A stretch of DNA of 64,000 bases, taken from NCBI GenBank assembly GCA_903831805.1, contig CAIKZD010000014.1:2078-66077 (forward strand). Direction: 5' to 3'. The DNA comes from an uncultured bacterium. Lineage in GTDB: Bacteria > Patescibacteriota > Minisyncoccia > Moranbacterales > UBA2206. Each line of letters begins with the position of its first letter. Position 1 is the stretch's first letter. The translations under genes and the position numbers were made by a program. Of the stretch, positions 10,487 to 33,540 are shown one piece after another. The notes under the pieces are model-generated. The model had not been told where the DNA came from, made no database searches, and saw only the letters and a program-made list of their open reading frames with translations.

Positions 10487-10687
10487 TTATTTCAAATACT
10501 CTTCAATATCCTTAACCACATCATCTTCAATCTTTTCAATCGCAAACCCGGCGTGCACAATCACGAACTCGCCTATTTTGGGCTCGCTCAGCAAAGTTAT
10601 ATTGATTTCTTTTTGCACACCCGAAAAATCAACTGTCGCCAGATGTTCATTAATTTTGATAATTTTTCCTGGAATAGCTAAACACAT
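10487..10687 (-). CDS. hypC: hydrogenase maturation factor HypC
   Basis: MCLAIPGKIIKI N-terminus (Cys2). The ORF-track upstream extension overlaps the 165-bp repeat, so start is taken at MCLAIP. Confidence 0.85.
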   Translation of the reverse strand: MCLAIPGKIIKINEHLATVDFSGVQKEINITLLSEPKIGEFVIVHAGFAIEKIEDDVVKDIEEYLK

Positions 10688-10850
10688 GCCGATTTTGTCT
10701 GCGAGCGTAGCGAGGAGGAACAAAATCGAGCACCCCGCATAAATTCGCTCTCAAAATTATATATTAAACTACAGTTAAGCCGCAGGCGCCTACGCACACA
10801 AATCCCTACATTTTCACCATCTTCATTGGAATTTTGTGCGGGGTTGCTAT
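10685..10850. repeat. About 165-bp structured repeat element, copy A (other copies at 17325-17495 and 33376-33540)
   Basis: catgccgattttgtctgcgagcgtagcgag...aagccgcaggcgcctacgcac...cattggaattttgtgcgggg aligns along its length with copy B. It starts at the hypC start codon and ends at the stop of the [FeFe]-like gene. Confidence 0.7.
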
Positions 10851-10852
10851 TT

Positions 10853-12298
10853 TTAAATTTCCGCTGATTGCCCTCCTCCGCGTTCGCATCCCCTCGGACA
10901 CACCATCACTTCCAGAAAGTCATAATGTTTTTCTCTTTTTAATTCAGCTGATAAGGCGTTCTTGATTTCGAGCACGCCGTTGGCCGCACCGATGGAAAAA
11001 TCACCCTTGATTTTTTTGGCCGTCATGGCGGAGAGGTTGCCATATCCATACGTCGTAGCATACTCGGCGTCCGTCTCATCCAAAAACTTATCCGCCGCGG
11101 AGCCTTTGAAACGGATGTTTTCTGTTTTCTTCTCCCGCGCGATGCGGCCCAGCTCCCGCACCGTGACGATATGATCAATCGCATTACTCTTGAGTTTTTT
11201 TCTGGCGGCGCAAGATGAGATAAGTATCACTCGGATGTTTTTCGGATCGATTTTTTCTCGCTTGGCATATTCCCATTTGACCGCTTCCGCCATCAATTCT
11301 TCCGGCCGTTTTACGTCGATAATATTTTTTATTAATTCCGGAAAATATTTTTGGATATACAGCGCCGCGCTCGGGCAAAAACTGGAGATAAATTTTCGCT
11401 GGCGCACCGGCGTTTTTTTTCTGGCGTGATGCGGATGGATCTCTTCCGCCACAGCTTCGACATATTTCTGGAATCCCCAACTCAGATCGAAAACTTTTTC
11501 GCATCCCAGTGCCCGCAGATTCCCGGCCAAATTTTCCATGTTCTTCACCTCAAGAAGTTCCTGCATCGCGCTTTTCAGGACCACCGGGTCCACGATGGCC
11601 ACTGAAAGAATGTTGGTGTCATCTAAGTCGGTGATGACTTTTTGGATATCGCCCTGGTCGGCCAGCGCGCCGGTCGGGCAATGCGTCACGCAGGCTCCGC
11701 AAAAAATACAATCCAGTGGCTGGTTGTATGGCGTCCCAACCACCACATCTCCTGAGCGATGATTGAAACCATACGAACTGACGGGACAAATGTTGATGCA
11801 ACGCCGACATTCTACGCAATATTGCGAATCACGCTCAATGACCGGATTTTCTCTGTCCACCACCACGCGAGACCAGTTATCCAGCAAAAGTTCATTTTCC
11901 TCGCCACTAGTCATCTCACCTTTTCTTGGCACAAAATGAAAATTCTCTATCTTATATTCTTCCGCCAAAGTTTGCAATTCACAGCGACGGTTTTTTTTGC
12001 ACTGAAAACACTTGCCGGCATGATCCGCCCAAAGCAGTTCCAAATTGATGGCCCGCGCTTTCTGGATGTTTTCATTTTCCGTTTCCACTTTCATCCCATC
12101 AACGGCTTTGGTCGCACAAGAAGTCACCAACCGGCCAGATTTATCAATTTCTACCAAACACAACCGACAAACTGCTTCGCGTTTAAGTTTTCCATGCGAA
12201 CAAAGAGTCGGAATGCGGATCCCCTCGCGCCGACAGACATCCAAGACAGTGTCTTTTTCTTTGGCGCTATATTTTTTTCCATTTATTTTTATTTGCAT
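10853..12298 (-). CDS. [FeFe]-hydrogenase-like catalytic subunit (HydA-like, M3 architecture) with atypical H-cluster motifs
   Basis: NuoG-like N-terminus (2Fe-2S CRLCLVEI; CVECRRCINICP; CIFCGACVTHCP). H-domain motifs are L1 SSFCPSA (canonical TSCCPGW), L2 SSCAARKK (MPCxxKKxE), L3 EVMVCPRGCERGGGQS (ExMACxxGCxxGGGQ). Start taken at MQIKINGKKY (12298), overlapping the nuoF-like stop. Confidence 0.75.
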   Translation of the reverse strand: MQIKINGKKYSAKEKDTVLDVCRREGIRIPTLCSHGKLKREAVCRLCLVEIDKSGRLVTSCATKAVDGMKVETENENIQKARAINLELLWADHAGKCFQCKKNRRCELQTLAEEYKIENFHFVPRKGEMTSGEENELLLDNWSRVVVDRENPVIERDSQYCVECRRCINICPVSSYGFNHRSGDVVVGTPYNQPLDCIFCGACVTHCPTGALADQGDIQKVITDLDDTNILSVAIVDPVVLKSAMQELLEVKNMENLAGNLRALGCEKVFDLSWGFQKYVEAVAEEIHPHHARKKTPVRQRKFISSFCPSAALYIQKYFPELIKNIIDVKRPEELMAEAVKWEYAKREKIDPKNIRVILISSCAARKKLKSNAIDHIVTVRELGRIAREKKTENIRFKGSAADKFLDETDAEYATTYGYGNLSAMTAKKIKGDFSIGAANGVLEIKNALSAELKREKHYDFLEVMVCPRGCERGGGQSAEI

Positions 12299-13536
12299 AA
12301 TATTTTTAATTTTTCCACGGCATCCCCCATCGCCGTCGCCGCAAATCTGCCCAGCGGACAAAAAGTTGTATTTTCCAAAGTCCATAAAATGTCTTTGAGT
12401 GCTTCCCGATCCCGCTCGGAAATTTCTCCGTCCTGCCATCTGCTCACAATTTCATGCAGCCGAAAAGTGCCTTCGCGGCACGGCACGCATTTGCCACACG
12501 ACTCGCGACGGAAAAATTCCGTCCAAGACAAGATTAAATCATAGATATTGGCACTTTTGTCGACAACCAAAATAGATCCTGAGCCGAGGGGAATCGGACA
12601 GTCACGAGAAAATGTGAGCGGCGTATCCAATTCCTTCTCGGTGACAAGATGTCCGGACGCTCCCCCAATTTGCGCAAACCAAAATTCTTTACCCAATGTC
12701 ACGCCGCCGCCGATTTCATCAATCAACTCACGGATGGTTAGGCCAGTCGGCGCTTCCACTACGCCCGGTTTTTTCACACTTCCACCCAAGATGTACAATT
12801 TCATCCCCGGCGAACAGGTGGCCCCGAGCTTGGCATATTTTTTCCCAGAGTTTAAGATTATCCACGGAATATTGGCGATTGTCTCGGCGTTGTTCACGCA
12901 TGTCGGTTTGCCGAAAAGCCCGGTTTCCGTCGGATAGGGCGGTCTAAGTCGCGGTTCGCCGCGACGCCCTTCGATAGAATTAAGGAGGGCCGTTTCTTCA
13001 CCGCAGATATACGCCCCGGCTCCAGAAAAAATTTCAATATCCAAATCATAACTCGAACCCATGATCCCCGGTCCCCAAAAATTTTTCTTCCGCGCTGCTT
13101 CCAATGCCGTTTCTAGAATTTCTTTTTGCTTATGATAATTCCCATTGAGATAGAGATAGGCTTTATGCGCCCCGACGGCTAGTGCGGCAATAATGACCCC
13201 TTCCAAAAGCAAATGCGGATCATTATCCACAATCATGCGGTCCTTATATGTGCCCGGCTCCGATTCTTCCAAATTGCAAATGAAATATTTCTCATGGCTT
13301 GCATTCTCAGCCACTATTTTTAATTTTTCCCCGGTCAAAAATCCCGCCCCACCCCGCCCGGACAACTTGGATTTCACAATTTCAGCAATGGCTGTTTGTG
13401 GCTTCATCTCTGAGACAAACTTTTTGAGCGCGCCGTAACCGCCTACATTTATATAATCAGCAATCTTGAGAGGATTAATATGCCCCCAGTTTTTGGTCAG
13501 TATTTTTTCTGTCTTAGCCATATTTATTAAATCCAA
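12289..13536 (-). CDS. NADH-binding NuoF/HoxF/HydB-like flavoprotein subunit
   Basis: GRGGAGFLTG FMN/NAD site, C-terminal ESCGKCVPCREG 4Fe-4S motif. Length 415 aa. Confidence 0.85.
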   Translation of the reverse strand: MDLINMAKTEKILTKNWGHINPLKIADYINVGGYGALKKFVSEMKPQTAIAEIVKSKLSGRGGAGFLTGEKLKIVAENASHEKYFICNLEESEPGTYKDRMIVDNDPHLLLEGVIIAALAVGAHKAYLYLNGNYHKQKEILETALEAARKKNFWGPGIMGSSYDLDIEIFSGAGAYICGEETALLNSIEGRRGEPRLRPPYPTETGLFGKPTCVNNAETIANIPWIILNSGKKYAKLGATCSPGMKLYILGGSVKKPGVVEAPTGLTIRELIDEIGGGVTLGKEFWFAQIGGASGHLVTEKELDTPLTFSRDCPIPLGSGSILVVDKSANIYDLILSWTEFFRRESCGKCVPCREGTFRLHEIVSRWQDGEISERDREALKDILWTLENTTFCPLGRFAATAMGDAVEKLKILCK

Positions 13537-13539
13537 ATT

Positions 13540-13986
13540 TTACAGATATTCTTCCAACATCTCGTACACACTGCTCACCGTCACTCGCTCATAAACCTTA
13601 CCATTCACCATCACCACCGGGCCCTCGCCACATCTGCCCACACAACTCATCATTTCTAATTTAAATTTCGGATGATTCACGTCCCCCAACTTTATGTGCA
13701 AAATATTTTCTATTTCAGCAATTATTTTTTTGGCATCGCTCAGCGCGCAATGCGTCGAGAAACAAACCCTCACTACGAACGGCGGTTGTTTTTCGGTGTT
13801 TATATTATCATAAAAGCTGGCTGTTTCATAAATCTGCGTTTTGGTGACAGAAAAATAGTCTGCGATTTTTCCAGTCTTTTCTTCATCAACGTAACCAAAA
13901 ACAAGACTAATTTGTCGGATGGCCGGCAGAATATTCTCCGCCCTGGGCGAGAATTCTAAAAGTATTTTTTCTACAGTCAAAGACAT
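13540..13986 (-). CDS. NuoE/HoxE/HydC-like 2Fe-2S thioredoxin-fold subunit
   Basis: VCFSTHCALSDAKK...CVGRCGEGPVVMVNG Cys motif pattern of the NuoE family. Confidence 0.8.
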   Translation of the reverse strand: MSLTVEKILLEFSPRAENILPAIRQISLVFGYVDEEKTGKIADYFSVTKTQIYETASFYDNINTEKQPPFVVRVCFSTHCALSDAKKIIAEIENILHIKLGDVNHPKFKLEMMSCVGRCGEGPVVMVNGKVYERVTVSSVYEMLEEYL

Positions 13987-14048
13987 ATTGGCCTATTAAC
14001 ATTTAAGCATTTTGTTCATATGTTAAAATGCTAAAATGATTGAATGAT

Positions 14049-14909
14049 TTACGCTTTATCCGCGCTGCCAAATAAACCTATCTTTTTCACCACGCTTTTT
14101 TTGACTGCTTCGCGCGCTTGGCCCAAAATCTTTCTCACATCAAAACCCGGGTCATCATCCGAACGAAAAATAGTGCTGAGCGTATTCACGAAGGCCAGCC
14201 GAGTATTGGTATCAATATTAAAACAGCTTACCCCGTGCTTAACCGCCTCAACAGCCTTATCTTCCCAATCCGAAGCACCATGCATCACAATCGGCACCGT
14301 TACCAGACTTCTGATTTTGTCCAATCTTTCCCAATCCGGTGTTTCCCGTTCTTTGAAAAAGTCATGCGCATTGCCAATGGCCACCGCCAAGGCATCGATG
14401 CCGGTCTCCTCTACGAAATATTTCGCCTGTTCCGGATCGGTCATATACTTATCCCAATCCACTTCGCCCATCTTATTTTCACTCAAATACGGCACATTGC
14501 CCAATTCGCCCTGCACGTCCACGCCCAAATCATGACAAAAATCCACCACCTTCTTGGTCACTTCCAAATTATCCTCAAATTTTTTGCGACTGCCGTCATA
14601 CATCACGGATGTAAAACCGTTGTTCACAGTTCGTTGTACAATCTCAAAACTGTGCCCATGGTCCAGATGAATGCCGATGGGAATTTCCGGCGCATAAAAC
14701 TCCGCATAGTTTTTTATCAAATGAAAAATCCCTCGCCCGCCGGCATATTCCAAAGTATTCTCAGACACTTGGATGATAATGGGCGAACGCGCCTCTTTCG
14801 CCGCGTCCACAATGGCCTGTGTGATTTCCATGTTAACCGTATTAAAGGCGCCCACCGCATAACCGCCTTCTTTGGCTTTTTCTAAAATTTCTTTGACTGA
14901 TGTGATCAT
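14049..14909 (-). CDS. fba: class II fructose-1,6-bisphosphate aldolase
   Basis: GAFNTVNME, IHLDHGHS and a 286-aa length match class II FBA. Confidence 0.85.
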   Translation of the reverse strand: MITSVKEILEKAKEGGYAVGAFNTVNMEITQAIVDAAKEARSPIIIQVSENTLEYAGGRGIFHLIKNYAEFYAPEIPIGIHLDHGHSFEIVQRTVNNGFTSVMYDGSRKKFEDNLEVTKKVVDFCHDLGVDVQGELGNVPYLSENKMGEVDWDKYMTDPEQAKYFVEETGIDALAVAIGNAHDFFKERETPDWERLDKIRSLVTVPIVMHGASDWEDKAVEAVKHGVSCFNIDTNTRLAFVNTLSTIFRSDDDPGFDVRKILGQAREAVKKSVVKKIGLFGSADKA

Positions 14910-14913
14910 ATTT

Positions 14914-15675
14914 TTATTGGTTAATTATTTCCGCAATTTTAATAAATTCATAGGGCGCAAGGCTTTCCCGCCCAACCAGTGCTCCATCCATCCCAGAATC
15001 CACACAAATATTTTTAGCGTTCTTAGAATCGACTGATCCCCCATAAATTATTTTTACTTTATCAGCCGTTTTGGCGGAATATTTTTCCACCAAAAATCTT
15101 TTTATCAAAATCCGCGCGCTCATCACACCATCGGTTGTCGGCAGATGATCGGGGTTATTAGCGCTGATGGCCCAAACCGGTTCATAGCAGATCACGACGT
15201 TTTCGATCCGCGCCGCCCCCACTTCCTTCAAACAATTTTTGAGCTGACTCATAATCGTCGCTGAGCCGTTTCCCTGTTTCTCTTTCTCGCCGACGCAAAG
15301 AAGCGGCCGCAGACCGGTCTTCAATGCCGCCATAACCTTGAGACCGATTTCCTCATCATTTTCACCGAAGTATCGTCTCCTTTCGCTGTGGCCCAAGATC
15401 ACCCACTCCGCCCCGAAATTCCGAACCATATCAGGCGAAATTTCCCCGGTGTATGATCCGTTCCGCTCCCAAAACATATTCTGCACCCCCAGGAAAACTT
15501 TTTTGCTTTTCAATTTTTTGAACGCTTCCAAATGTATGGCCGGCGGACAAAGTACAATGCTAGTTCTGCTCAACTTTTTTCCAGCCAGTTCTTTTTTGAA
15601 CAGCTTGAAATATTGTTCGCGTTCCAACGGACTTAAGATATTCATCTTCAAATTTCCCACCACTAATTTTTCCAT
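14914..15675 (-). CDS. tpiA: triosephosphate isomerase
   Basis: VVGNLKMN, VILGHSERR and ICYEPVWAI(S) motifs. Confidence 0.9.
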   Translation of the reverse strand: MEKLVVGNLKMNILSPLEREQYFKLFKKELAGKKLSRTSIVLCPPAIHLEAFKKLKSKKVFLGVQNMFWERNGSYTGEISPDMVRNFGAEWVILGHSERRRYFGENDEEIGLKVMAALKTGLRPLLCVGEKEKQGNGSATIMSQLKNCLKEVGAARIENVVICYEPVWAISANNPDHLPTTDGVMSARILIKRFLVEKYSAKTADKVKIIYGGSVDSKNAKNICVDSGMDGALVGRESLAPYEFIKIAEIINQ

Positions 15676-15682
15676 ATTTTTA

Positions 15683-16162
15683 TTAAAGATATAATGTTAC
15701 AGCAAGGACAATCGCCCCGGAAACCATCGTGCCCGCCAAAAGAAGCGGCAATGATTTTTTCAGCGGCACATTAAAAATAAAAGCGGCTAGGGCGCCAGTC
15801 ATTCCCCCGATAAACGGGATGGGCGAAGCCGCTAGAATGAAGATTGCCCACGTACCATATTTTTGCATATGTTGGTCAGTTTTTTTGCGCGTATGTTCAA
15901 ACAGCCACGTAAAAAATTTTTCCAATAATTTTATATGCTTCGACAATATTTTCGCAATCGGATCAAGAGCGAGAACAATCACTACCATAGTGAAAAAAGT
16001 GCCGAGCACTGAATAGAACCAAGACCAAAAAGCACTGAGGCCATACAGCCTATACGCCAAAGGCAATGCCACGCGCAACTCCGTCACCGGGACAGCCCCG
16101 ATCAAAAAAGTCGCCAGTCCTTTCGGGAAATGAGAAAAATAGGAAATGATTATTTGATGCAT
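15683..16162 (-). CDS. small polytopic membrane protein (COG2426-like putative small exporter)
   Basis: Four predicted TM helices, 159 aa, no catalytic motif. Confidence 0.45.
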   Translation of the reverse strand: MHQIIISYFSHFPKGLATFLIGAVPVTELRVALPLAYRLYGLSAFWSWFYSVLGTFFTMVVIVLALDPIAKILSKHIKLLEKFFTWLFEHTRKKTDQHMQKYGTWAIFILAASPIPFIGGMTGALAAFIFNVPLKKSLPLLLAGTMVSGAIVLAVTLYL

Positions 16163-16185
16163 AACTATGTAAGATTTCAGATTGA

Positions 16186-17271
16186 TTAAATGTTTCGCAG
16201 GAACTCCGCCGCTTCTTCCGGGCGCATCGTAATGATCTCGATCCCGGTGGAAATCTCAAAGCCCGCCCAGATGTTCAGTTTTGGCACAATTTCAATATGC
16301 CAATGAAAATGCGGGTAGTCCTTCCCGTCACAAGGAGATGTGTGGATATAGAAATTGAAATCAGGATTGTTCAGGCCTGCGCTAAGTCGGCGCACCGCCT
16401 CATGCAAGGCTTCCCCCGCGGAAATTTTTTCCGCCACACTGATACGTTCGAAATAGGGCTTATGCTTTTTCGGCATGACCCACATTTCAAAATTAGCGCG
16501 CGACGCAAATGGGCAAAAAACCATAAAATCATCATTCTCGAAAACCACTCGTTCGCCCTTCTCTTTCTCCCATTCGAGCATAGCGCAATAAACGCAATGC
16601 CTATTCTGCTGATGATATCTCTCCGCGCCGTCCAGCTCGGACGCAACATACGGAGACACGACCGGAATGGCCATCAGTTGCGAATGCGGATGAGGGATGG
16701 AAGCACCGGCACTTTTTCCATGATTGTGAAAGATGTCGATATAATTCACTGATTTTTTGTTCATCAGGTCGACATAGCGCGATTGATAAGCATCCAAAAT
16801 TTCCGCCACCGCCATTGGCTCCAACTGCCCGATATGTTTCGCATGGTCGCGCGTCACAATCACCTCATGATAGCCCACTGAGTCCATCCAAAAATATGGT
16901 CCCTCTTCTTTGTGTCTCATCACTCCGCCTTTCGGATTAGTGAAAGCTGGAAATTTATTGGGAAAAACTCGTAAACTCCACTCGCCGGAAGACGTTTCAT
17001 AAATCAAAACGTCTTTTTCCTGGCCGCTCGCCACCGGATCGCAGAACAGACATGACTGATCATGAACGATCTCAGTATCGTCTTCTTTTTTGATAAACTC
17101 ATCCGGTCGACGGCCACGGATCGCCGAAACCACCACCCAATCTCCCGTCACTAAATCTTGGCGCAGCTCGCTTATCCTGTTTATTTCTTTTATTTTTTCC
17201 GGCTCTTTGGTTTTTTCAGATTCACTCTCGCTCTTTATAACTTTGATTTTTATTTTTTCTTCTTCTTCCAT
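16186..17271 (-). CDS. galT: galactose-1-phosphate uridylyltransferase
   Basis: CLFCDP zinc site and the HPHSQ (HxHxQ) active-site motif, with a lysine/glutamate-rich N-terminal extension. Confidence 0.85.
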   Translation of the reverse strand: MEEEEKIKIKVIKSESESEKTKEPEKIKEINRISELRQDLVTGDWVVVSAIRGRRPDEFIKKEDDTEIVHDQSCLFCDPVASGQEKDVLIYETSSGEWSLRVFPNKFPAFTNPKGGVMRHKEEGPYFWMDSVGYHEVIVTRDHAKHIGQLEPMAVAEILDAYQSRYVDLMNKKSVNYIDIFHNHGKSAGASIPHPHSQLMAIPVVSPYVASELDGAERYHQQNRHCVYCAMLEWEKEKGERVVFENDDFMVFCPFASRANFEMWVMPKKHKPYFERISVAEKISAGEALHEAVRRLSAGLNNPDFNFYIHTSPCDGKDYPHFHWHIEIVPKLNIWAGFEISTGIEIITMRPEEAAEFLRNI

Positions 17272-17324
17272 TTTTGTCCGCGAGTTTGTTTTATACAGTT
17301 TTTTACTTTATAAAACAACTTTTT

Positions 17325-17495
17325 TTATTTTTTATCAAATTTTATTCATCATGAGCGAGTGGAAACAAAAATGAGAACCCCGCGCCAATTCGTCATGAAT
17401 ATTTTTTATTTTTAAGAAAATGAGTCGCAGGCGGCCGCGTCTACAAATCCCAATACTACATAAAATTATCCTTGGAATTGGCGCGGGGCATGACC
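17325..17495. repeat. About 165-bp structured repeat element, divergent copy C
   Basis: ...catgagcgagtggaaacaaaaatgagaaccccgcgccaattcg...gagtcgcaggcggccgcgtctacaaatccc...ccttggaattggcgcgggg aligns to copies A and B. It has a perfect 14-bp long-range inverted repeat ccccgcgccaattc/gaattggcgcgggg and lies between the GT2 stop and galT start. Confidence 0.6.
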
Positions 17496-17502
17496 ACAAT
17501 AT

Positions 17503-18252
17503 TTACTCTTTTATTTTATACGCGCCGCTCCACAAGCGCACCCGGGTTTTCCACAGATCCAAAAGCACTTGAGGATACCCATTCGGCCCAGTCAATTTCA
17601 CAGTCGAACCTTCTTCATTAAGCCAGCGGACCGGCATCTGCTTTATCTTAAATCCCAGTTTTTTAGCCAACACGATAATTTCGAAATCAAAACCGAACCG
17701 ATCCACCACCATCCGACTAGCCACCGCTTCGGCTGCGCGCGCGCTCAGCATCTTGAAGCCGCATTGTGTGTCAGGATAACTCCACAGTCCGAGCAAAATG
17801 CGGATGGCCCAGTTGCCCATGTCCCCCATCATTTCTTTATATTTCGCTTGATGCACTTGCACGAAAGAACCGGCAATGTCACGCGAACCCATCACCACGT
17901 CAAATCCATTTTGAAACTCCGGCAAAAATTTGTCCAGATGATTGATAGCCGTCGAGCCATCCGCGTCAAAAAACAAGCGATATTCTCCTTTGGCTGCCAG
18001 TAGTCCTTGGCGCACCACATAGCCCTTGCCGTGATTTTCCGGATTATCAATCACCCGCAAATTCTTGAGCTTGCCCGCGTAGCTTCGGGCGATTTCCGCC
18101 GTATTATCCGGCGAACCGTCCACTACAATTACAAACTCATATTCATAAGTCTTATCGGCAAAATACTTCATACATGCTTCTAAATTTTCCGCAATTCTTT
18201 TTCCTTCCTTGTAAGAAGGGATAATGACCGAGAGATATGGCTTTGTTTCCAT
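17503..18252 (-). CDS. family 2 glycosyltransferase (dolichyl/polyprenyl-phosphate hexosyltransferase-like)
   Basis: LSVIIPSYKEG...VIVVDGSPDNT and DADG motifs. Confidence 0.8.
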   Translation of the reverse strand: METKPYLSVIIPSYKEGKRIAENLEACMKYFADKTYEYEFVIVVDGSPDNTAEIARSYAGKLKNLRVIDNPENHGKGYVVRQGLLAAKGEYRLFFDADGSTAINHLDKFLPEFQNGFDVVMGSRDIAGSFVQVHQAKYKEMMGDMGNWAIRILLGLWSYPDTQCGFKMLSARAAEAVASRMVVDRFGFDFEIIVLAKKLGFKIKQMPVRWLNEEGSTVKLTGPNGYPQVLLDLWKTRVRLWSGAYKIKE

Positions 18253-18335
18253 GATACTAAAATTAATATTTATTCAACAATTATGCTTCTAACGCTATTT
18301 TGATTTTACCACAAAATCACAAATTATGGAACATA

Positions 18336-18764
18336 TTAACACGCCCTGTCCAGCCACTCCTGCAAGATTATCTTGGCCGCTTCGGCGTCGTCATGTTTGC
18401 CCACGTTTTTCATGCCCTTGGCAATCAAATTATCTTGGGCCGACTTAGTGGTAAACATTTCGTTCTGATATTCAATCTTCATGCGCGAAAAAGCTTTCTG
18501 GATCACTCCTCCCAATTTCTCACCCGCCGTTTCCTTTTTTTCGCGCCGCAAATAAGTCGGAATACCGATTACAATCGTCTCGATTCTTTCTTGCTCGATA
18601 ATTTTAGCTAGATCGGTAAGAAAATTTTCATCATTTTTCAGCGTAGCGTACGTAAAAGCGATTTTCATCTCCGTGTCCGCCATTGCCAAACCAATCTTGG
18701 CTGTCCCAAAATCCACCCCCAATATTTGGCTTATCTTAGCGTTGTTTTGCATCCCTATTGACAT
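18336..18764 (-). CDS. ruvX: Holliday-junction resolvase-like nuclease RuvX/YqgF
   Basis: ILGVDFGTAKIGLAMAD N-terminus and IVIGIP motif. Confidence 0.75.
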   Translation of the reverse strand: MSIGMQNNAKISQILGVDFGTAKIGLAMADTEMKIAFTYATLKNDENFLTDLAKIIEQERIETIVIGIPTYLRREKKETAGEKLGGVIQKAFSRMKIEYQNEMFTTKSAQDNLIAKGMKNVGKHDDAEAAKIILQEWLDRAC

Positions 18765-18877
18765 TATGGTATAATTATGATAGAATTAAAAATCAGTGAT
18801 GATGTTCTTAAACAAGTTATTTCCATCAAGGTGTTCTTTGAGGAAATAGAAATAGTCAACCTATCGGAGGATACACC

Positions 18878-19198: not shown

Positions 19199-19203
19199 CT
19201 CCA

Positions 19204-19250: not shown

Positions 19251-19269
19251 TTCTCAAAAAACTACTTAT

Positions 19270-24899: not shown

Positions 24900-24931
24900 A
24901 TATATTTATCGGTTGCTTAATTTATATTTAA

Positions 24932-25477: not shown

Positions 25478-25503
25478 AAATTTTTTGGCAGATATTGCGT
25501 GGT

Positions 25504-25830
25504 TTATATTTCGCTTTTACACTTTTTACAAATTCTGGCTTTCTTAACGTCCTTATCCTTAGAAACCTTATAGCCCACCCGGGTCGCCTTGGAACATTTC
25601 GGACAGACCAACATCACATCTGAAACAGTGACTTTTCTCGGCAATTCTACTCGCTGTCCCTGTTCGCCTTCGCGACGCGCTCGCATATGCTTTTTCATCA
25701 GATTGAGGCCTTCCACAACCACTTTCTCCTCGCTAGGATGCACCTTAACAACCTTCCCGGTTTTGCCGTGGTCTTTGCCAGCTAACATTTTGACTATATC
25801 GTTTTTCTTGATTTTCATAATTTTTTGCAA
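25504..25830 (-). CDS. rplX: 50S ribosomal protein L24 (C-terminal Cys4 variant)
   Basis: KOW motif KKNDIVKMLAGKDHGKTGKV. The C-terminus VMLVCPKCSKATRVGY...ICKKCKSEI carries CxxC...CxxC. Confidence 0.85.
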   Translation of the reverse strand: MQKIMKIKKNDIVKMLAGKDHGKTGKVVKVHPSEEKVVVEGLNLMKKHMRARREGEQGQRVELPRKVTVSDVMLVCPKCSKATRVGYKVSKDKDVKKARICKKCKSEI

Positions 25831-25851
25831 AATGGTCTTGCGACCTCGTAC

Positions 25852-26217
25852 TTATAAAACTTCCGGGGCCAAGGAAACTATCTTGGCAAATCCCTTATCC
25901 CGGATCTCGCGTGCGATCGGCCCAAAAATTCTCGTGCCTTTCGGTTCTTTGCCATCCACAATCACGGCCGCATTTTCATCAAAACGGATATAGGATCCAT
26001 CCTTGCGGCGGAATTCTTTCCGCTGTCTGACAATCACCGCTCTGACCTTATCGCCCTTTTTCACCAGTCCGCGCGGTTCAGCCACTTTTACCGCTGCCAC
26101 CACAATATCGCCGAGTTGAGCGAAGCGTCTTCTGGTCCCACCAAGGACCTTAAAGCACTCCACCACTTTGGCGCCGCTGTTATCCGCTACTTTTAATCTT
26201 GTTCTATCTTGAATCAT
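25852..26217 (-). CDS. rplN: 50S ribosomal protein L14
   Basis: [18 protein letters not shown]-terminus. Confidence 0.92.
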
Positions 26218-26226
26218 ATATTTGGT

Positions 26227-26475
26227 CTATTTTACGATATATCTTTTGCCTAAGCTACGTGGTCGACAAGGCACGATTTCCACAGTGTCGCCAGTCTTAT
26301 ATTTATTTTCCTCGTCATGCGCTTTATATTTCTTGGTCACACGGTATTTCTTCTTATATTTGGCATGCGTTTTATAGGAACCGACAGCCACTACTACGGT
26401 TTTGTCGCCCTTATCACTCACCACCACTCCCTTTTTCTTGGATATTATTTTATTTTTTTCTGCGTTATTTTCCAT
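26227..26475 (-). CDS. rpsQ: 30S ribosomal protein S17
   Basis: GVVVSDKGDKTVVV...YKAHDE motif. Confidence 0.88.
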   Translation of the reverse strand: MENNAEKNKIISKKKGVVVSDKGDKTVVVAVGSYKTHAKYKKKYRVTKKYKAHDEENKYKTGDTVEIVPCRPRSLGKRYIVK

Positions 26476-26486
26476 ATGGGAGTCGA

Positions 26487-26681
26487 TTATTTTTCTTTAA
26501 TTAGAGTGAGGAGCCTGGCCACATCTTTCTTCTCTCTTCTGATTTCTCGAATATTCTTAACTTGCTTTGAGACAATATCAAATCTAAGCTTCCGGATTTT
26601 TTCCATTTTTTCAGCCAGAAGATTCTTAGCCTCTTCCAAACTGATTTCTCGAATTTTTTGACGTATTTCTTTGACCTTCAT
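26487..26681 (-). CDS. rpmC: 50S ribosomal protein L29
   Basis: 64 aa, lies between L16 and S17, and has the MKVKEIRQKIRE..L.EAKNLLAE helix pattern. Confidence 0.8.
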   Translation of the reverse strand: MKVKEIRQKIREISLEEAKNLLAEKMEKIRKLRFDIVSKQVKNIREIRREKKDVARLLTLIKEK

Positions 26682-26703
26682 AATATTTTTCCAAAAATTT
26701 GGA

Positions 26704-27114
26704 TTACTCCTTAACGATAAACTTAGTCTTTACATTTAATTTATAAGCCGCCAGTCGCATCGCTTCTTTCGCCACTTCCACCTTCACTCCGTCCATTTCA
26801 AATAGCATCGTTCCGGGTTTGACTACAGCCACAAAATGATCCACGGCGCCCTTTCCCTTTCCCATTGGAGTCTCATCTCCCTTTTTGGTCATCGGCTTAT
26901 CCGGGAAAATTCTGATCCAAATTTTTCCGCCGCGTTGGATATATCTGGTCATCGCGCGCCGGGCTGATTCGATCTGTCTGGCTGATACCAAATTGTTGCT
27001 CAATGACTTTAATCCGAAACTGCCGAAACTTATTTCATTGTTCCTTTGAGCGATTCCTCGAAGCGGTCCACCTCGTTGGATCTTCCTGTGTTTTACTTTG
27101 CGTGGCATTAACAT
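26704..27114 (-). CDS. rplP: 50S ribosomal protein L16
   Basis: [16 protein letters not shown]-terminus. Confidence 0.9.
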
Positions 27115-27139
27115 AACAATTGCAGCTTAAAAATCATTC

Positions 27140-27799
27140 TTAATTAGTATCGTTCTTAAACACTTCACCTTTATACAACCAAACCTTGACGCCGAGCGTT
27201 CCATAAGTAGTGAACGCAGTGGCTCGGGAAAAATCAATATCCGCTCTCATCGTGTGCAGCGGGACACTACCTTTAGACGCTTTTTCCGTACGGGACATTT
27301 CTGCGCCTCCTAATCGGCCGGACATTTCAATCTTCATCCCCCGCATGCCTTTATTCTTCATGACTTGTTCCAACGCCGTTTTCATCGCTCTCCTGAAGGG
27401 CATTCTTTTTTCCAACTGTTCTACGATGTTTTGCGCGATGATTGAAGCACTTTCTTCAAAACGTTTTACCTCTTGCACTTCTACTTTTAAATTGGTAGTG
27501 CGGCTTTTATTGAAAAATTTCGTGTGGATGTAGCTTTTCACTTCTTCGATTCCGCTCCCGCCGCGACCGATGAGCACGCCCGGACGAGCAGTCTTGATAA
27601 TAACCTTGATCATCTTAGCCGAACGGACAATTTCAACTTCAGAAATCAAAGCCGCCTTCCATTTCTTGGAAACTTCTTGACGGATTTCAATATCCTGTCT
27701 GAGATTGACCCTGTATTCCTTTTTTTTGCTAAACCATTTGGATTTCCAGTCTTGCGTGATACCGAGTCTGAATCCAATTGGGTTAATCTTATTTCCCAT
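27140..27799 (-). CDS. rpsC: 30S ribosomal protein S3
   Basis: MGNKINPIGFRLGIT N-terminus and KH domain. Confidence 0.92.
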   Translation of the reverse strand: MGNKINPIGFRLGITQDWKSKWFSKKKEYRVNLRQDIEIRQEVSKKWKAALISEVEIVRSAKMIKVIIKTARPGVLIGRGGSGIEEVKSYIHTKFFNKSRTTNLKVEVQEVKRFEESASIIAQNIVEQLEKRMPFRRAMKTALEQVMKNKGMRGMKIEMSGRLGGAEMSRTEKASKGSVPLHTMRADIDFSRATAFTTYGTLGVKVWLYKGEVFKNDTN

Positions 27800-27843
27800 A
27801 AAACTTAATCTTGTTATTCTTTATTTAACCTTTTGCCTAAAAA

Positions 27844-28401
27844 CTACATCGATTTTCTTCTGAATATTTTCTCTCCCCACTTATTCTTAGTTTCTTTCTG
27901 GCTTTTTTCCACATCTTTCTTGCCTTCAATTTTTTCTGTTTTGCCTGGTTTGTTGTCAGTCGTAGCTTCCTTCTCCTTAGCCATTTCCTTTAATTCTTTT
28001 TTCTTATCTTCTAAGCGCTTCTTTTTTTCTTTGTCCATTTCTTCTTTGGTTTTGCGTCCCTTGCCTTCTATTCTTTCCTCCAAGGTCAATTTTATTTTAG
28101 AAGTTCTTTTCAGAATGCGACCGGCGCGGCCGAAAGCTTTCGGCATCCAGCGTTTCAACACCGGTCCTTCGCCGACCAAGACATCATATACATAAAGATT
28201 GTTCTTGTCCAATCCAAAATTGTTCTCGCCATTGGCCACCGCGCTGTTTAGAAGCTTCGCCATGAAAGAACTGGTTTTTTTCACATTCACATCCAGTTGC
28301 CCCAAAGCTTCGGAAACATTCATCCCCTTCACCAATCTGGCGACCAGTCTGGATTTTCGCGGAGCGATTCTTATATTGTTCAGTTGTGCCGTTACCTTCA
28401 T
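27844..28401 (-). CDS. rplV: 50S ribosomal protein L22 with a ~75-aa lysine/glutamate-rich C-terminal extension
   Basis: RIAPRKSRLVARLVKGMNVSEAL core followed by a K/E-rich tail. Length 185 aa versus a typical 110. Confidence 0.85.
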   Translation of the reverse strand: MKVTAQLNNIRIAPRKSRLVARLVKGMNVSEALGQLDVNVKKTSSFMAKLLNSAVANGENNFGLDKNNLYVYDVLVGEGPVLKRWMPKAFGRAGRILKRTSKIKLTLEERIEGKGRKTKEEMDKEKKKRLEDKKKELKEMAKEKEATTDNKPGKTEKIEGKKDVEKSQKETKNKWGEKIFRRKSM

Positions 28402-28418
28402 ATCGATATTCGATTAAT

Positions 28419-28763
28419 TTATTTTTTCTTAGCCGGCTCGGAAGTTTTGGCCGCTTTAGCCGCATCCAATTCCCGTTGCTTAGCCGCCGTTTCCATTTCC
28501 TTCTGCATCTTACCACCATGTTTGGTGAATTTTCTGGTTGGAGAAAATTCGCCCAACTTGTGTCCCACCATTTCTTCCGCCACCATCACTGAGATAAAAT
28601 CCTTGCCATTATGCACACCGAAGGTAAACCCGACCATTTCAGGAGAGATAACAGAAGCCCGCGACCATGTTTTGATCGGTGTTCTGTCACCCGGCGCCTT
28701 GTTTTGAATTTTTTTGATCAGTCTCTCATCAACATAGAGACCTTTCTTTAAACTTCGTGTCAT
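28419..28763 (-). CDS. rpsS: 30S ribosomal protein S19 (C-terminal extension)
   Basis: [28 protein letters not shown] motif. Confidence 0.88.
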
Positions 28764-28776
28764 AATGATTGGTGTT

Positions 28777-29610
28777 TTACTTTCTCTTAGCTCTGCGCTT
28801 AATTATATATTTATTGGTCTCCTTATTCTTCTTGCGAGTTTTCTTGCCGAGAGCCGGCTTGCCCCAAGGAGTTTTCGGATGTTTGAGTCCAATACCTTGG
28901 CGACCTTCTCCTCCACCATGTGGATGATCTACCGGATTCATGGCTGAACCACGCACGCCTGGTCTGACTCCCATATGTCTCTTCCTTCCAGCTTTCCCGA
29001 CATTAATGGAATTATGTTCAAAATTGCTCACTTGTCCAATTGTCGCGAAACAATCACTTTTCACGGCGCGAATTTCTCCCGAAGACATTTTTATCTGAGC
29101 ATTTTTTTCATCTACTGCAGTTAAAATCACTTTCGCTCCGGCGGTTCTGGCAATTTGCGCTCCCTTGCCGGGGAAAAATTCTACATTGGAAATGATTGTG
29201 CCGGCGGGAATATTTTTGATCATGGTGCGATTGCCCAATTCTATCGGCGCATTGTCAGCGGTCAGCACCTTACTGCCTTCTTGGAGGCCATCCGTAGCCA
29301 AAACATAGCGCTTTTCTCCATCAGCATAATTGATAAGCGCGATGAAGCCGCTGCGACAAGGATCTCTTTCGATCGAAGCCACCACGCCTGGAATGTTTTT
29401 CTTATCTTGCTTGAAATCCACCATACGATAGCGTTGTTTATGTCCACCGCCTTGATGACGCACGGATATTTTTCCATTTGATCGTCCGGCCAAACTTTTT
29501 TTCTTCGCCAAAAGGGACTTCTCCGGTTTTTTCTTCGTCAAAAGAGAAGATTTCACGATAGACATGTTTCTTCTCCCTGCATGATTTCTTTTGTAAACTT
29601 TAATAGCCAT
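28777..29610 (-). CDS. rplB: 50S ribosomal protein L2
   Basis: [13 protein letters not shown] motifs; 277 aa. Confidence 0.92.
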
Positions 29611-29633
29611 ATATTCAGACTTAACAACTTTTC

Positions 29634-29948
29634 TTATTTATTGCCGAACAGATCAATGCTCTCGCCTGCCTTCACAGTCACAATCGCTTTTTTGTAACTA
29701 GCGGTTTTGCCTTCAATCCGGCCGCGCATCCTTTTTTTGCCACCGACATTGATGGTGCGGACTGAGATAACCTTCACTTGATACAACGCTTCAATAGCTT
29801 TTTCCACTTGTTTTTTGGTCGCGTCACGAGTCACTCGAAAAATATACTTATTCAGTTCGGCGGCCGCGGTCGAAGCTTCCGTTATCCACGGGGCAACTAG
29901 TACTTTAGCGGCGATATTCAAATTGGTAGTTTTTTTATCTGCAGTCAT
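29634..29948 (-). CDS. rplW: 50S ribosomal protein L23
   Basis: Operon position and ~100 aa length; YIFRVTRDATKKQVEKAIE motif. Confidence 0.82.
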   Translation of the reverse strand: MTADKKTTNLNIAAKVLVAPWITEASTAAAELNKYIFRVTRDATKKQVEKAIEALYQVKVISVRTINVGGKKRMRGRIEGKTASYKKAIVTVKAGESIDLFGNK

Positions 29949-29959
29949 TGCGTTGGTTA

Positions 29960-30598
29960 TTATTTTTTATCTTCGGTGTATTTTTCTTCTAAATATTTCA
30001 GCGAATCTTTTGACATGAGCAAATATTTATTATTCAACATATCCACAATATTCAACTGAGCTGTCATGATATTTTCCGCTTTGGCAATGTTGCGGCTGGC
30101 TATTCTGGCATCTTTTTCAGCGGCGGCGAAAGCCATCAAAATTCTGGAAGTAATCCCTAAATTTTTCAAAACTGCAGCCACTTCTTTCGTCTTGCCATCC
30201 TTAAAATCTATCTTATCAATAATTCGGAGTTCATTATCCTTGAATTTTCCGCTCAAGACCAGCTTAATTGCTTGTGTATTCATCTTTTTGTTGATCTTCT
30301 TTTTGAAATTGCGGTCATTTCTCGGCCCGAAAGCCACGCCACCCTTCCTCCAGGTCGGAGTTCGTACCGAACCGACGCGCGCGCGCCCCGTGCCCTTTTG
30401 TTTCCAGGGCTTGATGCCGGAACCGGCTCGCTCTCCACGATTTTTGGTGTGAGCCAGAACTTGTCTTTGGTTGGACTGAATGGAAACAAAAACCTGTTGC
30501 ACCAACTCGTCATTCGGTTTAGCACCAAAAACAGCATCGGAAACTTCGATCTCTTCCACTTCTTTGCCAGCTATATTGTAAACTTTAAGTTTTGCCAT
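29960..30598 (-). CDS. rplD: 50S ribosomal protein L4
   Basis: Operon position; 212 aa; KPWKQKGTGRAR motif. Confidence 0.88.
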   Translation of the reverse strand: MAKLKVYNIAGKEVEEIEVSDAVFGAKPNDELVQQVFVSIQSNQRQVLAHTKNRGERAGSGIKPWKQKGTGRARVGSVRTPTWRKGGVAFGPRNDRNFKKKINKKMNTQAIKLVLSGKFKDNELRIIDKIDFKDGKTKEVAAVLKNLGITSRILMAFAAAEKDARIASRNIAKAENIMTAQLNIVDMLNNKYLLMSKDSLKYLEEKYTEDKK

Positions 30599-30615
30599 TT
30601 TTTTATTCGTAGAAA

Positions 30616-31170
30616 CTACGTGCTTTTAATTTCAATAATATTGCCTAAGATTCCCGGCACCGCCCCTTTCACTCCGATAATTTTTTTCACTGGATCCACC
30701 AAGACAACCTTAATATTCTTGCCGGTAGCTTGCACTCCGCCCATGCGACCAGCCATGCGCTTGCCTTTCACCACATGCTCCGGAAAACCTGAACCAATGG
30801 CGCCTGGTGCGCGCAAGTCATGCTTGTGCCCATGTGTTTTAGGAGAACCGGCAAAGCCATGTCTCTTCACCACTCCTTGGAAGCCTTTCGCTTTGGTGAT
30901 GCCGCTAACATCCACAATATCTCCGGCTTGGAAAATTGAAACATCGATGATGTCACCTTCTTTCAAATCGGTTTTCTCCACTCTAAATTCTTTTTTGAAA
31001 ATTCTTTTAGCAGTTTTTTGAATTTCAATCTGCACAGCGCTATATTTATCCTTTTCAACGCTACGAATCAAGCTGACGCGCGAAGCACACTCAACCAAAG
31101 TGACATTCTCGGCCCCATTTTCGCTATATATAGTCGTCATTCCTAATTTTTTACCGAGTATGAATTTCAT
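30616..31170 (-). CDS. rplC: 50S ribosomal protein L3
   Basis: ILGKKLGMTTIY N-terminus and FQGVVKRHGFAG motif. Confidence 0.9.
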   Translation of the reverse strand: MKFILGKKLGMTTIYSENGAENVTLVECASRVSLIRSVEKDKYSAVQIEIQKTAKRIFKKEFRVEKTDLKEGDIIDVSIFQAGDIVDVSGITKAKGFQGVVKRHGFAGSPKTHGHKHDLRAPGAIGSGFPEHVVKGKRMAGRMGGVQATGKNIKVVLVDPVKKIIGVKGAVPGILGNIIEIKST

Positions 31171-31303
31171 TTGATTAAATTAAACAATTTTTTCTGATAA
31201 ATAAAAAATGGCTTTGACCAGCCAATGCCCTTCTGCAGGGTCTTTGAGGCTAGTTTAGTATCCCCGCGCGTGGCAGCCAGGACTTTAACTAGATTATATT
31301 TTC

Positions 31304-31630
31304 TTACATTTTTATTTCAATATCCACTCCAGCCGGCAAATCCAGATTAATCAAACTATCGATGGTTTTTGGAGTTGGGTTAGTGATGTCTATGAGCCGC
31401 TTATGCGTTCTCATTTCATATTGATCACGTGCATCCTTATGTTTGAAAGTTGACCGGTTGACTGTGTACTTCCTTATTTCAGTCGGCAAAGGAATCGGAC
31501 CGGAAACCCCGGCACCGGATCTCTCCGCGGTATCAACAATAAGCTTAGCTGACTGATCAATAATTTTATGATCATAAGCCTTAATCTTAATCCTGATTCT
31601 TGGTTTTACTTCTTCCACCTGGTTCGACAT
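31304..31630 (-). CDS. rpsJ: 30S ribosomal protein S10
   Basis: [29 protein letters not shown] motif. Confidence 0.9.
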
Positions 31631-31690
31631 TACTTTGTATTTATTGAACAAACAACTATTTACTGAGTAAAAATAACTTCACTCTATAAA

Positions 31691-31714
31691 CCAGTCCCGC
31701 CCTAGCGGGACTGG
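31691..31714 (-). terminator. hairpin in tuf-rpsJ spacer (terminator/attenuator)
   Basis: ccagtcccgc ccta gcgggactgg, a perfect 10-bp stem. Confidence 0.45.
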
Positions 31715-31727
31715 TCAAAGAATAACC

Positions 31728-32921
31728 TTATTTCAATATTTTTGTCGCTACGCCAGCACCCACGGTGCGTCCACCTTCTCGAATGGCAAAGCGCATACCT
31801 TCTTCCAAAGCGACCGGAGCTCCCAAAACAACTTTAAAGCTGATTGTGTCTCCCGGCATCACCATTTCAGTTCCTTCCGGTAGTATCACTTCACCAGTCA
31901 CATCAGTAGTACGGATATAGAATTGCGGTTTGTAACCTTTGAAAAATGGAGTATGTCGTCCGCCTTCTTCTTTGTTCAAGATATAGACTTCACATTCAAA
32001 TTCAGTGTGAGGAGTGATGGAACCGATTTTGGCCAACACCTGACCTCTTTCCACGTCTTCTTTCTTAGTGCCGCGGAGCAGGATGCCTGCATTGTCTCCA
32101 GCTGTACCTTTGTCCAAAGTCTTGTTGAACATTTCAATACCAGTCACAGTAGTCTTAGCCGTTGGGCGCAGTCCCACAATTTCCACTTCACCATTAACAT
32201 TGATTTCCCCTCTTTCAATTCGGCCAGTGACCACAGTGCCACGACCTTCAATGGAGAAGATATCTTCAATCGGCATAAGGAAAGGTTTCTCAGTTTCTCG
32301 CACCGGGTCAGGAATTTTTTCGTCCAAAGCCGCCATCAATTCAAGAATCGGTTTAGCTGCTTCATCCTCAGCTGAGGCAGATTCCAGCGCCTTAAGAGCG
32401 GAACCTCGAATCACCTTAGCGTTTTCTCCATCAAATTCATATTTGGTCAAAAGTTCCCGCACTTCCGCTTCCACCAATTCTACGAGCTCAGGATCATCCA
32501 CCATATCCACCTTATTGAGGAAAACTACGATTTCCGGCACACCCACTTGATGAGCGAGCAAAATGTGTTCACGCGTCTGAGGCATTGGGCCATCAGTCGC
32601 GGCCACCACAATGATGGCACCATCCATCTGAGCTGCACCAGTAATCATATTCTTGATATAGTCAGCATGTCCTGGGCAGTCCACATGAGCATAATGTCTC
32701 TTATCAGTTTCATATTCACAGTGAGCAGTCGCAATGGTGATGCCACGTTCCTTTTCTTCCGGGGCCTTGTCAATTTCGTCAATGCCCTTTTCTACAGCCT
32801 GTCCTTTAAAAGCCAAGACGTGCAAAATAGCCGCTGTCAGAGTGGTTTTGCCATGATCAACGTGTCCGATGGTACCGACGTTAACATGAGGTTTAGTTCT
32901 TTCAAATTTTGCTGTTGCCAT
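31728..32921 (-). CDS. tuf: elongation factor Tu
   Basis: [28 protein letters not shown]-terminus, DCPGHADY and NKVD motifs. Confidence 0.95.
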
Positions 32922-33101
32922 AGGTTTGTCTTTTTTTTCGCTTCCTTCGCGCGACCTGCCGATGAGGCAGGAAATTCCGGAATAAAACACCGGATTCGCG
33001 AAACTTGGCGAATTTTTATTGTTATTAAATTATCACAATTATTACAAAATTCAGTCTACTCTACTTTTTGATATTTAGCAAGATTATCCCCTGTGGATAT
33101 C

Positions 33102-33380
33102 TCAAGCAGTCTTTTCGTATCTGATTTCTTCGGTCTTTTCTTGACCCAACTCGGTCAAATCCATGTCGGCCACTTTTTCCTCTTCCTGGAGCACTTTCCA
33201 ACTGGCAATATCATTGTTAATCTTATCAATCAACTCCTGCTTTGTCAAGCCCTCCACCCCTTCTTTTTTGATTTTCCTAAATTCCTTCAAACTGAGCAAG
33301 ACAAAATATTGATTTCCGTCTTTCAACACGGCTTTTCCTCCGAGGAGTTCCAGCGCTTCTTTGAGTTTTTCGTCTAGCAT
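33102..33380 (-). CDS. hypothetical small protein at head of tuf-S10 operon
   Basis: 92-aa ORF with a charged helical C-terminus. Its start codon abuts copy B of the 165-bp repeat. Confidence 0.4.
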   Translation of the reverse strand: MLDEKLKEALELLGGKAVLKDGNQYFVLLSLKEFRKIKKEGVEGLTKQELIDKINNDIASWKVLQEEEKVADMDLTELGQEKTEEIRYEKTA

Positions 33381-33540
33381 GCCAATTTTGTCTGCGAGCG
33401 AAGCGAGTAGCTACAAAATTGAGCATCCCGCGCGTATTCGCTCTCAAAACGTTATCTTATTTTCAAACTAAGCCGCAGGCGACCACGCACGAAAAACCAA
33501 ATACATTATGAAATCATTATTGGAATTTTGTGCAGGATAA
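33376..33540. repeat. About 165-bp structured repeat element, copy B
   Basis: catgccaattttgtctgcgagcgaagcgag...aagccgcaggcgaccacgcac...cattattggaattttgtgcagg aligns with copy A. Confidence 0.7.

Follow-up and report, generated by a model that had tools for sequence, protein, structure and literature searches.

Three copies of a structured element of ca. 165 bp, each abutting the 5' end of a gene, raise the question of what this element is and on which strand, and as which nucleic acid, it acts. They lie in a stretch of 64,000 nucleotides (referred to here as the window) from an uncultured bacterium of the Moranbacterales, Patescibacteriota (assembly GCA_903831805.1, contig CAIKZD010000014.1, positions 2,078 to 66,077), at the starts of hypC (copy A), a galT-like gene (copy C), and a 92-amino-acid (92-aa) open reading frame (ORF) ahead of tuf (copy B). 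A preliminary description, made from the sequence alone, had offered three identities for them, namely, a shared leader, promoter cassette, or cis-regulatory RNA; a small RNA gene antisense to the 5' ends; or a MITE (miniature inverted-repeat transposable element) carrying an outward promoter. Here, we describe them as members of a nonautonomous ca. 165-bp family of Moranbacteria and Parcubacteria that is defined by its structure and not by terminal repeats. The family is real, and selection maintains its fold on the strand antisense to the adjoining gene, namely, the template strand. We tentatively favor the view that the element is a hairpin-defined mobile cassette, with a leader and a start codon in portable form, which acts as single-stranded template-strand DNA and probably has a secondary role in the host.

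The family extends well beyond the window. A 22-base pattern common to the three copies, scanned against one genome per prokaryotic species, was present at 57 further loci in ca. 30 genomes, nearly all of them labelled Moranbacteria, Moraniibacteriota, Parcubacteria, or Patescibacteria. These loci (designated by L-numbers) were sampled as 8-kb windows around the copies, and profile and covariance-model searches of them gave ca. 75 copies in all, with up to five per 8 kb. Homologues of the hydrogenase-like gene of the window bear these taxon labels as well, from which an origin of the window in such a genome is most likely. Viral contigs scanned for the family gave no matches. The preliminary description had recognized no noncoding RNA family by eye, and the comparison with Rfam agreed: only a tRNA passed the gathering score over the window, while the sole matches near copy A at E values of up to 10 (mir-9441 and snoR12) were noise, far below their gathering scores. 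A limited search of the literature on Moranbacteria and Patescibacteria repeats, leaders, and start-codon MITEs yielded no description of the element either. On the basis of Rfam and this limited search, the family appears to be undescribed so far.

Two helices, P1 and P2, define the element, and since there are no nucleotides between them, the two flanks of the element are brought together. In P1 (46 nt), an ATG-GCA is held in a 12-bp A/T-rich outer stem; above this come a 2-nt bulge, an inner stem of 4 bp, and tandem G·A pairs, topped by a GC-GNA-GC apex. The core enclosed by P2 (14 to 15 bp) measures ca. 95 nt. One stretch of it is AT-rich and does not vary in length, another part is variable, and it also contains a GCC-GNA-GGC mini-hairpin (P3). 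Copies differed in length where the apical loop of P1 or P3 was extended by extra hairpins. Pairing statistics were computed on 56 copies and compared with 500 shuffles and with slid-partner controls. The percentage of paired cells was 95.7%, and two-sided changes had occurred in 18 pairs, compared with 6.2 ± 1.3 in the shuffles, none of which reached so high a value; sliding the partners by 1 to 3 columns brought pairing down to 37 to 51%. P2 was scored by per-copy duplex folding, given that an alignment with MAFFT only produced spurious wobble counts due to bulges, and it showed many distinct compensated haplotypes, including those of divergent lineages. Compensatory changes across the genomic copies therefore support both helices. 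As a side observation, locus L012 contains, at 505 to 545 and 2795 to 2835, a bare mini-hairpin (ATTC-GA-GC-GAA-GC-GA-GAAT) followed by a shared block of ca. 30 nt. Both lie on the template strand, the first or the second preceding the 5' end of a tRNA by 9 nt and the remaining one preceding an ATG by 7 nt, which suggests that the P1 apex is a module shared with other small elements.

The placement of the family at gene starts was equally constant. In nearly all copies, a long ORF running opposite to the + orientation that the element has in the window begins within its left end, at an offset of -10 or -5, i.e., at one of two fixed ATGs. With the first (...GACAAAA-ATG-GCA), the proteins open with MAK, MAH, MAR, and similar residues, while the second, 5 nt later (...ACAAAA(A/T)TGGC-ATG), is the one used by copies A and B. 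The gene-strand end of each copy reads ...CTCGCAGACAAAA-ATG-GCA, and the element provides the downstream gene with the final ca. 25 nt of its leader plus the start codon, at a fixed distance of 7 to 9 nt from the hairpin base to the ATG. Its other end falls 0 to 15 nt past the stop of a co-directional gene: the upstream neighbor was co-directional in 64 of 70 copies, and in ca. 45 of these 64 its stop codon lay no more than 15 nt away, so that the element is the entire intergenic spacer. Downstream of the element are core genes, most of them highly expressed, among them those for SecY, the ribosomal proteins S7, S8, S12, S13, L11, L13, and L14, GroEL, RecA, MreB, MraZ, GAPDH, SHMT, SMC, Fmt, and MraY. 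A plain dispersed repeat, with no bias toward gene starts and no compensatory base changes, is not what was found, as the bias was near total and compensatory changes were abundant. None of the window genes whose starts were checked (8 to 38 kb) has a Shine-Dalgarno sequence; they have A/T-rich leaders instead (e.g., AATAAAAAT-ATG), and translation in the host organism seems to begin without Shine-Dalgarno pairing. The missing Shine-Dalgarno sequence was thus rejected as a trait specific to the element, in which its absence is unremarkable.

Which strand folds can be read from the pairs themselves. On the window + strand, P1 had 55 G·T versus 4 A·C pairs over the family, and the inner stem alone had 50 G·T versus no A·C pairs, with all four Watson-Crick types occurring as well. 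On the gene strand, the equivalent structure would have A·C mismatches in about a third of the copies, with G·A becoming U·C and the GNA loops becoming UNC. RNAalifold recovered the inner stem on the + strand only (-23.7 versus -16.7 kcal/mol), 46 of 47 distinct copies had the more stable P1 on the template strand (-16.2 versus -12.9 kcal/mol), and a GC-G(A/G/T)A-GC apex was present on this strand in most copies. Together, these wobble pairs, the tandem G·A pairs, and the triloops indicate that P1 folds on the template strand. Mutation bias was considered as a source of the G·T excess. The C-to-T bias linked to transcription and replication acts on the sense or leading strand, and what it would leave on the folding strand is A·C instead of G·T pairs, from which we infer that it is not the source.

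These data bear directly on the possibility that the element is a structured leader or intercistronic element of the sense mRNA, in which P2 and the outer part of P1 would control processing, stability, or access to the start codon. Transcription of the gene strand is unavoidable, with copy B in a 5' untranslated region (UTR) and most copies between co-directional genes; P2 and the outer P1 stem are Watson-Crick paired on either strand, and the start codon is within P1. However, the helix with the best covariation, the inner stem of P1, is the one that would carry the A·C mismatches in an mRNA and the one that RNAalifold did not recover on the gene strand, and the G·A pairs would turn into tandem U·C/C·U. 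An AUG locked in a 12-bp stem would also be odd for highly expressed genes without Shine-Dalgarno sequences, and Rfam has no match. We therefore consider a sense-mRNA element rather unlikely. As for the leader, promoter cassette, or cis-regulatory RNA of the preliminary description, what stands is that the element supplies the end of the leader and the start codon and that copy B is within a 5' UTR; the inner hairpin pairs on the opposite strand only, and the promoter inside the element found no support (see below).

The strand of the fold is the one that a small RNA gene antisense to the flanking genes at their 5' ends would require, namely, the window + strand, and in this respect the earlier suggestion of such a gene was right. 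G·U pairs, tandem G·A pairs, triloops, and loop expansions are all there, as in an RNA, and at locus L047 the folding strand is shared with an adjacent tRNA gene. However, P1 begins at codon 2 of the neighboring gene, so that the promoter of this RNA would need to lie in unrelated coding sequence, where promoter-like sites were not enriched (5 in the last 40 nt to the left of P1 versus 1 to 5 per 40-nt bin deeper, in 64 copies). There was no terminator after P2, the only candidates being weak ones of 5 to 6 bp at the P3 hairpin, and there was no match in Rfam. We regard an RNA gene of this kind as highly improbable. The weak P3 candidates and the absence of a U-run after P1 and P2 also led us to reject the reading of the element itself as an intrinsic terminator. 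Lacking its own promoter and a terminator after P2, the folding strand is unlikely to be an independent antisense RNA, and single-stranded DNA is therefore the most plausible folded form.

Under the mobile-cassette reading that we favor, the element would spread as DNA while its template strand is single stranded, and its folded ends would then be recognized by a putative enzyme, in the manner of repetitive extragenic palindromes (REP/REPIN), IS200/IS605 derivatives, or integron attC sites. It may persist in compact genomes devoid of Shine-Dalgarno sequences by keeping the downstream gene translatable, and its own A-rich leader and start codon would be the reason why it is tolerated there. Copies are indeed gained and lost between species and near-identical within one genome. 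The spacer between the [FeFe]-hydrogenase-like gene and hypC measures 165 nt here, versus 10 and 11 nt in two relatives whose proteins are 70 to 72% identical, and in a third relative (L058, 1797 to 1928) it is filled by a different repeat of 132 nt. In the latter repeat, AAGGTAAAAAGTAAAA units occur in both direct and inverted orientation, the end is GAGCGAAGCGAGT-ATG, and the apex motif is opposite to the gene orientation. The ribosomal-protein cluster of the window has no copies, while other species have them before rplN, rplX, rpsN, rpsH, rplO, secY, rpmJ, infA, and rpsM, in varying combinations. At least 17 copies were present in the sampled parts of one metagenome-assembled genome (MAG). 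Within one MAG, four copies at contig ends were 97 to 99% identical, even in the normally variable core, which indicates that the copies break assemblies. In both L023 and copy C, a hairpin is nested in the P1 apex. A further insertion was in L047 (6684 to 6895, minus strand), where a minimal copy of 76 nt (P1 plus P2 as a plain hairpin) sits within a truncated extra tRNA-Arg(TCT), exactly between anticodon nucleotides 34 and 35, with no duplication and with the folding strand as the tRNA strand; an intact tRNA-Arg follows 27 nt after the truncated one. The right flank of the element often echoes its left terminus (RGCCAT), frequently adjoining the upstream stop as TAATGGC or TGATGGC. Among 65 copies, this GCCAT repeat was exact in 7 (0.3 expected) and had at most one mismatch in 22 (6.7 expected).

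Several observations weigh against this reading. The GCCAT repeat is missing from both empty sites between the hydrogenase-like gene and hypC, so that in this filled/empty comparison it is not a target duplication. There are no terminal inverted repeats: the P2 arms begin 47 nt inside the left end, and no inverted counterpart of the left terminus TGCCATTTTTGT occurs at the right one. No transposase or recombinase was found, the genomes being known only as 8-kb windows, which precluded a genome-wide search, and an inverted pair of copies in L036 has no transposase in between, just rpsL and a membrane protein gene. A search of JGI metagenomes for an empty allele of site A gave no matches. Furthermore, nearly all copies are intact, orthologous copies are 0.71 to 0.99 identical, compared with 0.36 to 0.80 at neighboring wobble positions, and some of them differ through compensatory changes, all of which fits a host function better than selfish DNA. 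The downstream genes are also strongly biased to housekeeping functions and high expression. Finally, the folding strand would be the leading-strand template, which is less exposed, if the genes are co-oriented with replication. Since individual copies remain intact, a secondary host function is likely. Among the identities first proposed, the MITE with an outward promoter is the closest in spirit, as the dispersal and the gain and loss between species hold, although terminal inverted repeats and, in the one filled/empty comparison, a target duplication do not.

The promoter question and the host function meet in another explanation, which we also consider doubtful, that of a host cis-acting DNA-structure element that tunes or positions transcription initiation at the 5' ends of highly expressed genes. 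Negative supercoiling would extrude the stable template-strand hairpin and/or melt the AT-rich core closed by P2, and the element could act, for example, as a supercoil sensor or as a hairpin-type start signal like the early promoters of phage N4. In the N4 virion RNA polymerase promoter, the hairpin of the template DNA has a 3-nt loop with a sheared 5' G/3' A, is closed by G:C, and is more stable than its complement, the nontemplate hairpin being melted, and transcription by this single-subunit polymerase begins ca. 11 nt downstream of the loop center (PMC4496689). The family resembles this design in its 3-nt GNA loop closed by G:C on the template strand, at a fixed short distance upstream, as well as in the asymmetry of its hairpin and in the sheared G·A pairs. 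The constant spacing between hairpin base and ATG agrees with such a role, and so do the L012 mini-hairpins, in view of their distances from the tRNA and the ATG, and the intact conserved copies before rpsL, rplK, rplN, rpsM, rplM, mraZ, groEL, recA, and gap; without Shine-Dalgarno sequences, short leaders would be plausible. Frpo, a single-stranded DNA promoter, is a plasmid-type hairpin signal. However, N4 and Frpo promoters are phage and plasmid signals for a dedicated or specially recruited polymerase, whereas here the genome is cellular and has ordinary sigma-70 promoters, and the hairpin is part of an element with two helices. No single-subunit RNA polymerase is known in this case (none was searched for). 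P2, the flanking repeat, the copy in the tRNA pseudogene, and the near-identical paralogs would also be left unexplained. The most specific form of this idea, that a supercoil-extruded template hairpin with its GNA loop and sheared G·A pairs, 7 to 9 nt upstream of an ATG or tRNA 5' end, positions initiation as a cellular counterpart of the N4 promoter on a portable cassette, strikes us as very remote. If it were true, a template-hairpin start signal would give near-leaderless mRNAs for those genes that are the most highly expressed.

A conventional promoter within the element fared no better. A TAAA(A/G)T box is found on the gene strand, 8 to 9 nt ahead of the P2 arm, with A at position 2 in 79% of the copies and T at position 6 in 66%. 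A -35 hexamer was absent from the element, the -35 position being occupied by TGCGGC, and the quality of the box was unrelated to the room available for an outside promoter (P = 0.87). Accordingly, an internal sigma-70 promoter was rejected as the defining feature, there being only a -10-like box, with no -35 and no link to need, and the same observation counts against the DNA-structure explanation. It is possible that some copies act as portable promoters, one example being A, in which the TATAAT is perfect, but this is not what defines the family. Canonical sigma-70 promoters (TTGACA-17-TAnAAT) occur elsewhere in the window. Sigma-54 and Bacteroidetes-type (TAnnTTTG) promoters, examined by eye, were also discarded because of unsuitable spacings and because the promoters used by this genome are canonical sigma-70 ones.

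In order to put the mobile-cassette reading into perspective, we compared the family with known dispersed elements. REP/REPIN sequences, which are mobilized by RAYT, and the nonautonomous hairpin derivatives of IS200/IS605 are likewise short, multicopy, and extragenic, are defined by imperfect hairpins, without coding sequence or terminal inverted repeats, and pair on one strand, which implies a single-stranded DNA substrate; their copies are also conserved across species. The present family differs from these elements in that it overlaps start codons at gene 5' ends instead of lying at 3' ends and in that its hairpin abuts a long-range stem around a 95-nt core. Unlike in REP, there is no invariant GTAG, which is merely one covarying inner-stem haplotype here, together with GCAG, GTGG, GAAG, and GGAG. 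No RAYT or TnpA was identified for the family, within the 8-kb windows that represent these genomes. Integron attC sites (57 to 141 nt) also fill the spacer between co-directional ORFs, their imperfect inverted repeats with bulged bases close a variable core, and it is their bottom strand, the template strand of the cassette genes, that folds. However, the attC core sites RYYYAAC and GTTRRRY are absent from the family, whose gene-strand ends are (T)ATCCCGCACCAATTC... and ...GACAAAAATGGCA. Its neighbors are core housekeeping genes at conserved positions (those for SecY, ribosomal proteins, GroEL, RecA, MreB, and GAPDH) and not accessory cassettes (intI was not searched for), and its extra hairpin holds a start codon. 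The Correia elements (NEMIS) of Neisseria and other promoter-bearing MITEs share with it a dispersed repeat of 100 to 160 bp close to gene starts that is co-transcribed, may alter expression, and varies in presence between strains. Nevertheless, Correia elements have 26-bp terminal inverted repeats, a TA duplication, and a symmetrical fold, with no start codon inside. The family thus fails, where tested, the defining sequence features of attC, Correia-type MITEs, and REP, and should not be filed under any of them. By analogy, it would work most like REP/REPIN, IS200/IS605 derivatives, and attC.

Within the window, the three copies share one orientation, as first described, and a profile built from them (nhmmer) found no fourth in the 64 kb. 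The sequence blocks said to be common to them were all present when the three regions were read, and A and B were 78% identical over 162 nt (blastn, E value of 3e-20). Covariance-model positions were 10686 to 10851 for A, 33379 to 33545 for B, and 17322 to 17496 for C, all on the + strand, while every neighboring gene is on the minus strand. The coincidence of the left edges with minus-strand gene starts held for all three, with the complementary CAT at 10685 to 10687 (hypC), 33378 to 33380 (92-aa ORF), and 17269 to 17271 (galT). Copy A, which scored 151 bits, lies between the [FeFe]-hydrogenase-like gene and hypC-hypD (neighbors assigned with Pfam). Its P1 (10687 to 10732) has the outer stem TGCCGATTTTGT/ACAAAATC-G-A-GCA and the inner stem CTGC/GGAG, and the apex at 10703 to 10714 combines the tandem G·A pairs with a GC-GTA-GC mini-hairpin (GAGCGTAGCGAG); the A of the hypC start codon is base 1 of P1. 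The 5' arm of P2 (CCCCGCATAAATTC, 10733 to 10746) abuts P1 without spacer, the 3' arm (GAATTTTGTGCGGGG) is at 10829 to 10843, and the P3 mini-hairpin GCC-GCA-GGC (10779 to 10787) is in the loop of P2. The right flank TTGCTATTT (10844 to 10852) repeats the left end, TGCC(A/G)ATTTT, directly but in degenerate form, and the stop codon of the hydrogenase-like gene, which the copy had been said to follow directly, is at 10853 to 10855, 9 nt beyond the last helix.

Copy C occupies the spacer that separates the galT-like gene from a GT2 glycosyltransferase gene. Its existence was confirmed, but its left edge, initially placed at 17325, had to be moved, since the 5' strand of its first hairpin was found further left; the copy therefore spans 17266 to 17496. 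This strand (TTCCATTTTTGT, 17266 to 17277) includes the galT ATG and is parted from the remainder by an AT-rich hairpin insertion of ca. 65 nt (ca. 17285 to 17352), with the 3' strand of P1 at 17365 to 17377. The perfect 14-bp stem reported for this copy was located at 17378 to 17391 and 17475 to 17488, which are the arms of P2. Copy B lies between the gene of a 1533-aa cell-wall protein and the 92-aa ORF plus tuf. Its P1 is at 33380 to 33425 and its P2 arms, the weakest of the three copies, at 33426 to 33439 and 33523 to 33537. A sigma-70-type promoter (TTGACA-17-TAATAT, 33573 to 33601, minus strand) precedes B by ca. 30 nt on the gene strand, which makes B wholly part of the 5' UTR.

Some features of the surroundings are worth recording. 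The 92-aa ORF (33102 to 33380, minus strand), which directly follows B and heads the tuf operon, had no Pfam match. The tuf ORF as listed opens with a GTG ca. 30 codons ahead of the GTPase domain, and its true start may be further downstream. An identical database protein of the hydrogenase-like gene (10853 to 12439, minus strand) has 481 aa, which places the real start ca. 47 codons downstream of that of the longest ORF. A long GC-rich palindrome (GCGTAGAGACGCAGCAGTGCTGCGTCTCTACG, 33626 to 33660) separates the promoter ahead of B from the 1533-aa gene and is probably the terminator of the latter. The 1533-aa protein (33671 to 38272, minus strand) has DUF7483 repeats and a C-terminal peptidoglycan-binding domain, and we take it to be of the giant surface or cell-wall type common in this bacterial group. 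A CT dinucleotide run is found upstream of its gene (between 38219 and 38570). A second, unrelated family of palindromic repeats (GTCATTCCTGCGYAGGC...GGAATGAC) is present in two intergenic regions (38484 to 38500 and 40951 to 40976), with 3 matches versus 0.05 expected.

Dispersed structured repeats have been described from many bacteria, but in Rfam and our limited literature search, we found none that combines an embedded start codon of the downstream gene, the filling of whole spacers within conserved operons, and a fold on the template strand. In practical terms, the family disrupts the assembly of these genomes and can mislead the calling of start codons. If it is mobile as single-stranded DNA, it would be a selfish element that colonizes genomes with almost no spare DNA by carrying a ready-made translation start. 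If, instead, the hairpin has a role in the host, it would point to an unrecognized layer of expression control in the candidate phyla radiation, a group in which little has been done to characterize promoters and translation signals.

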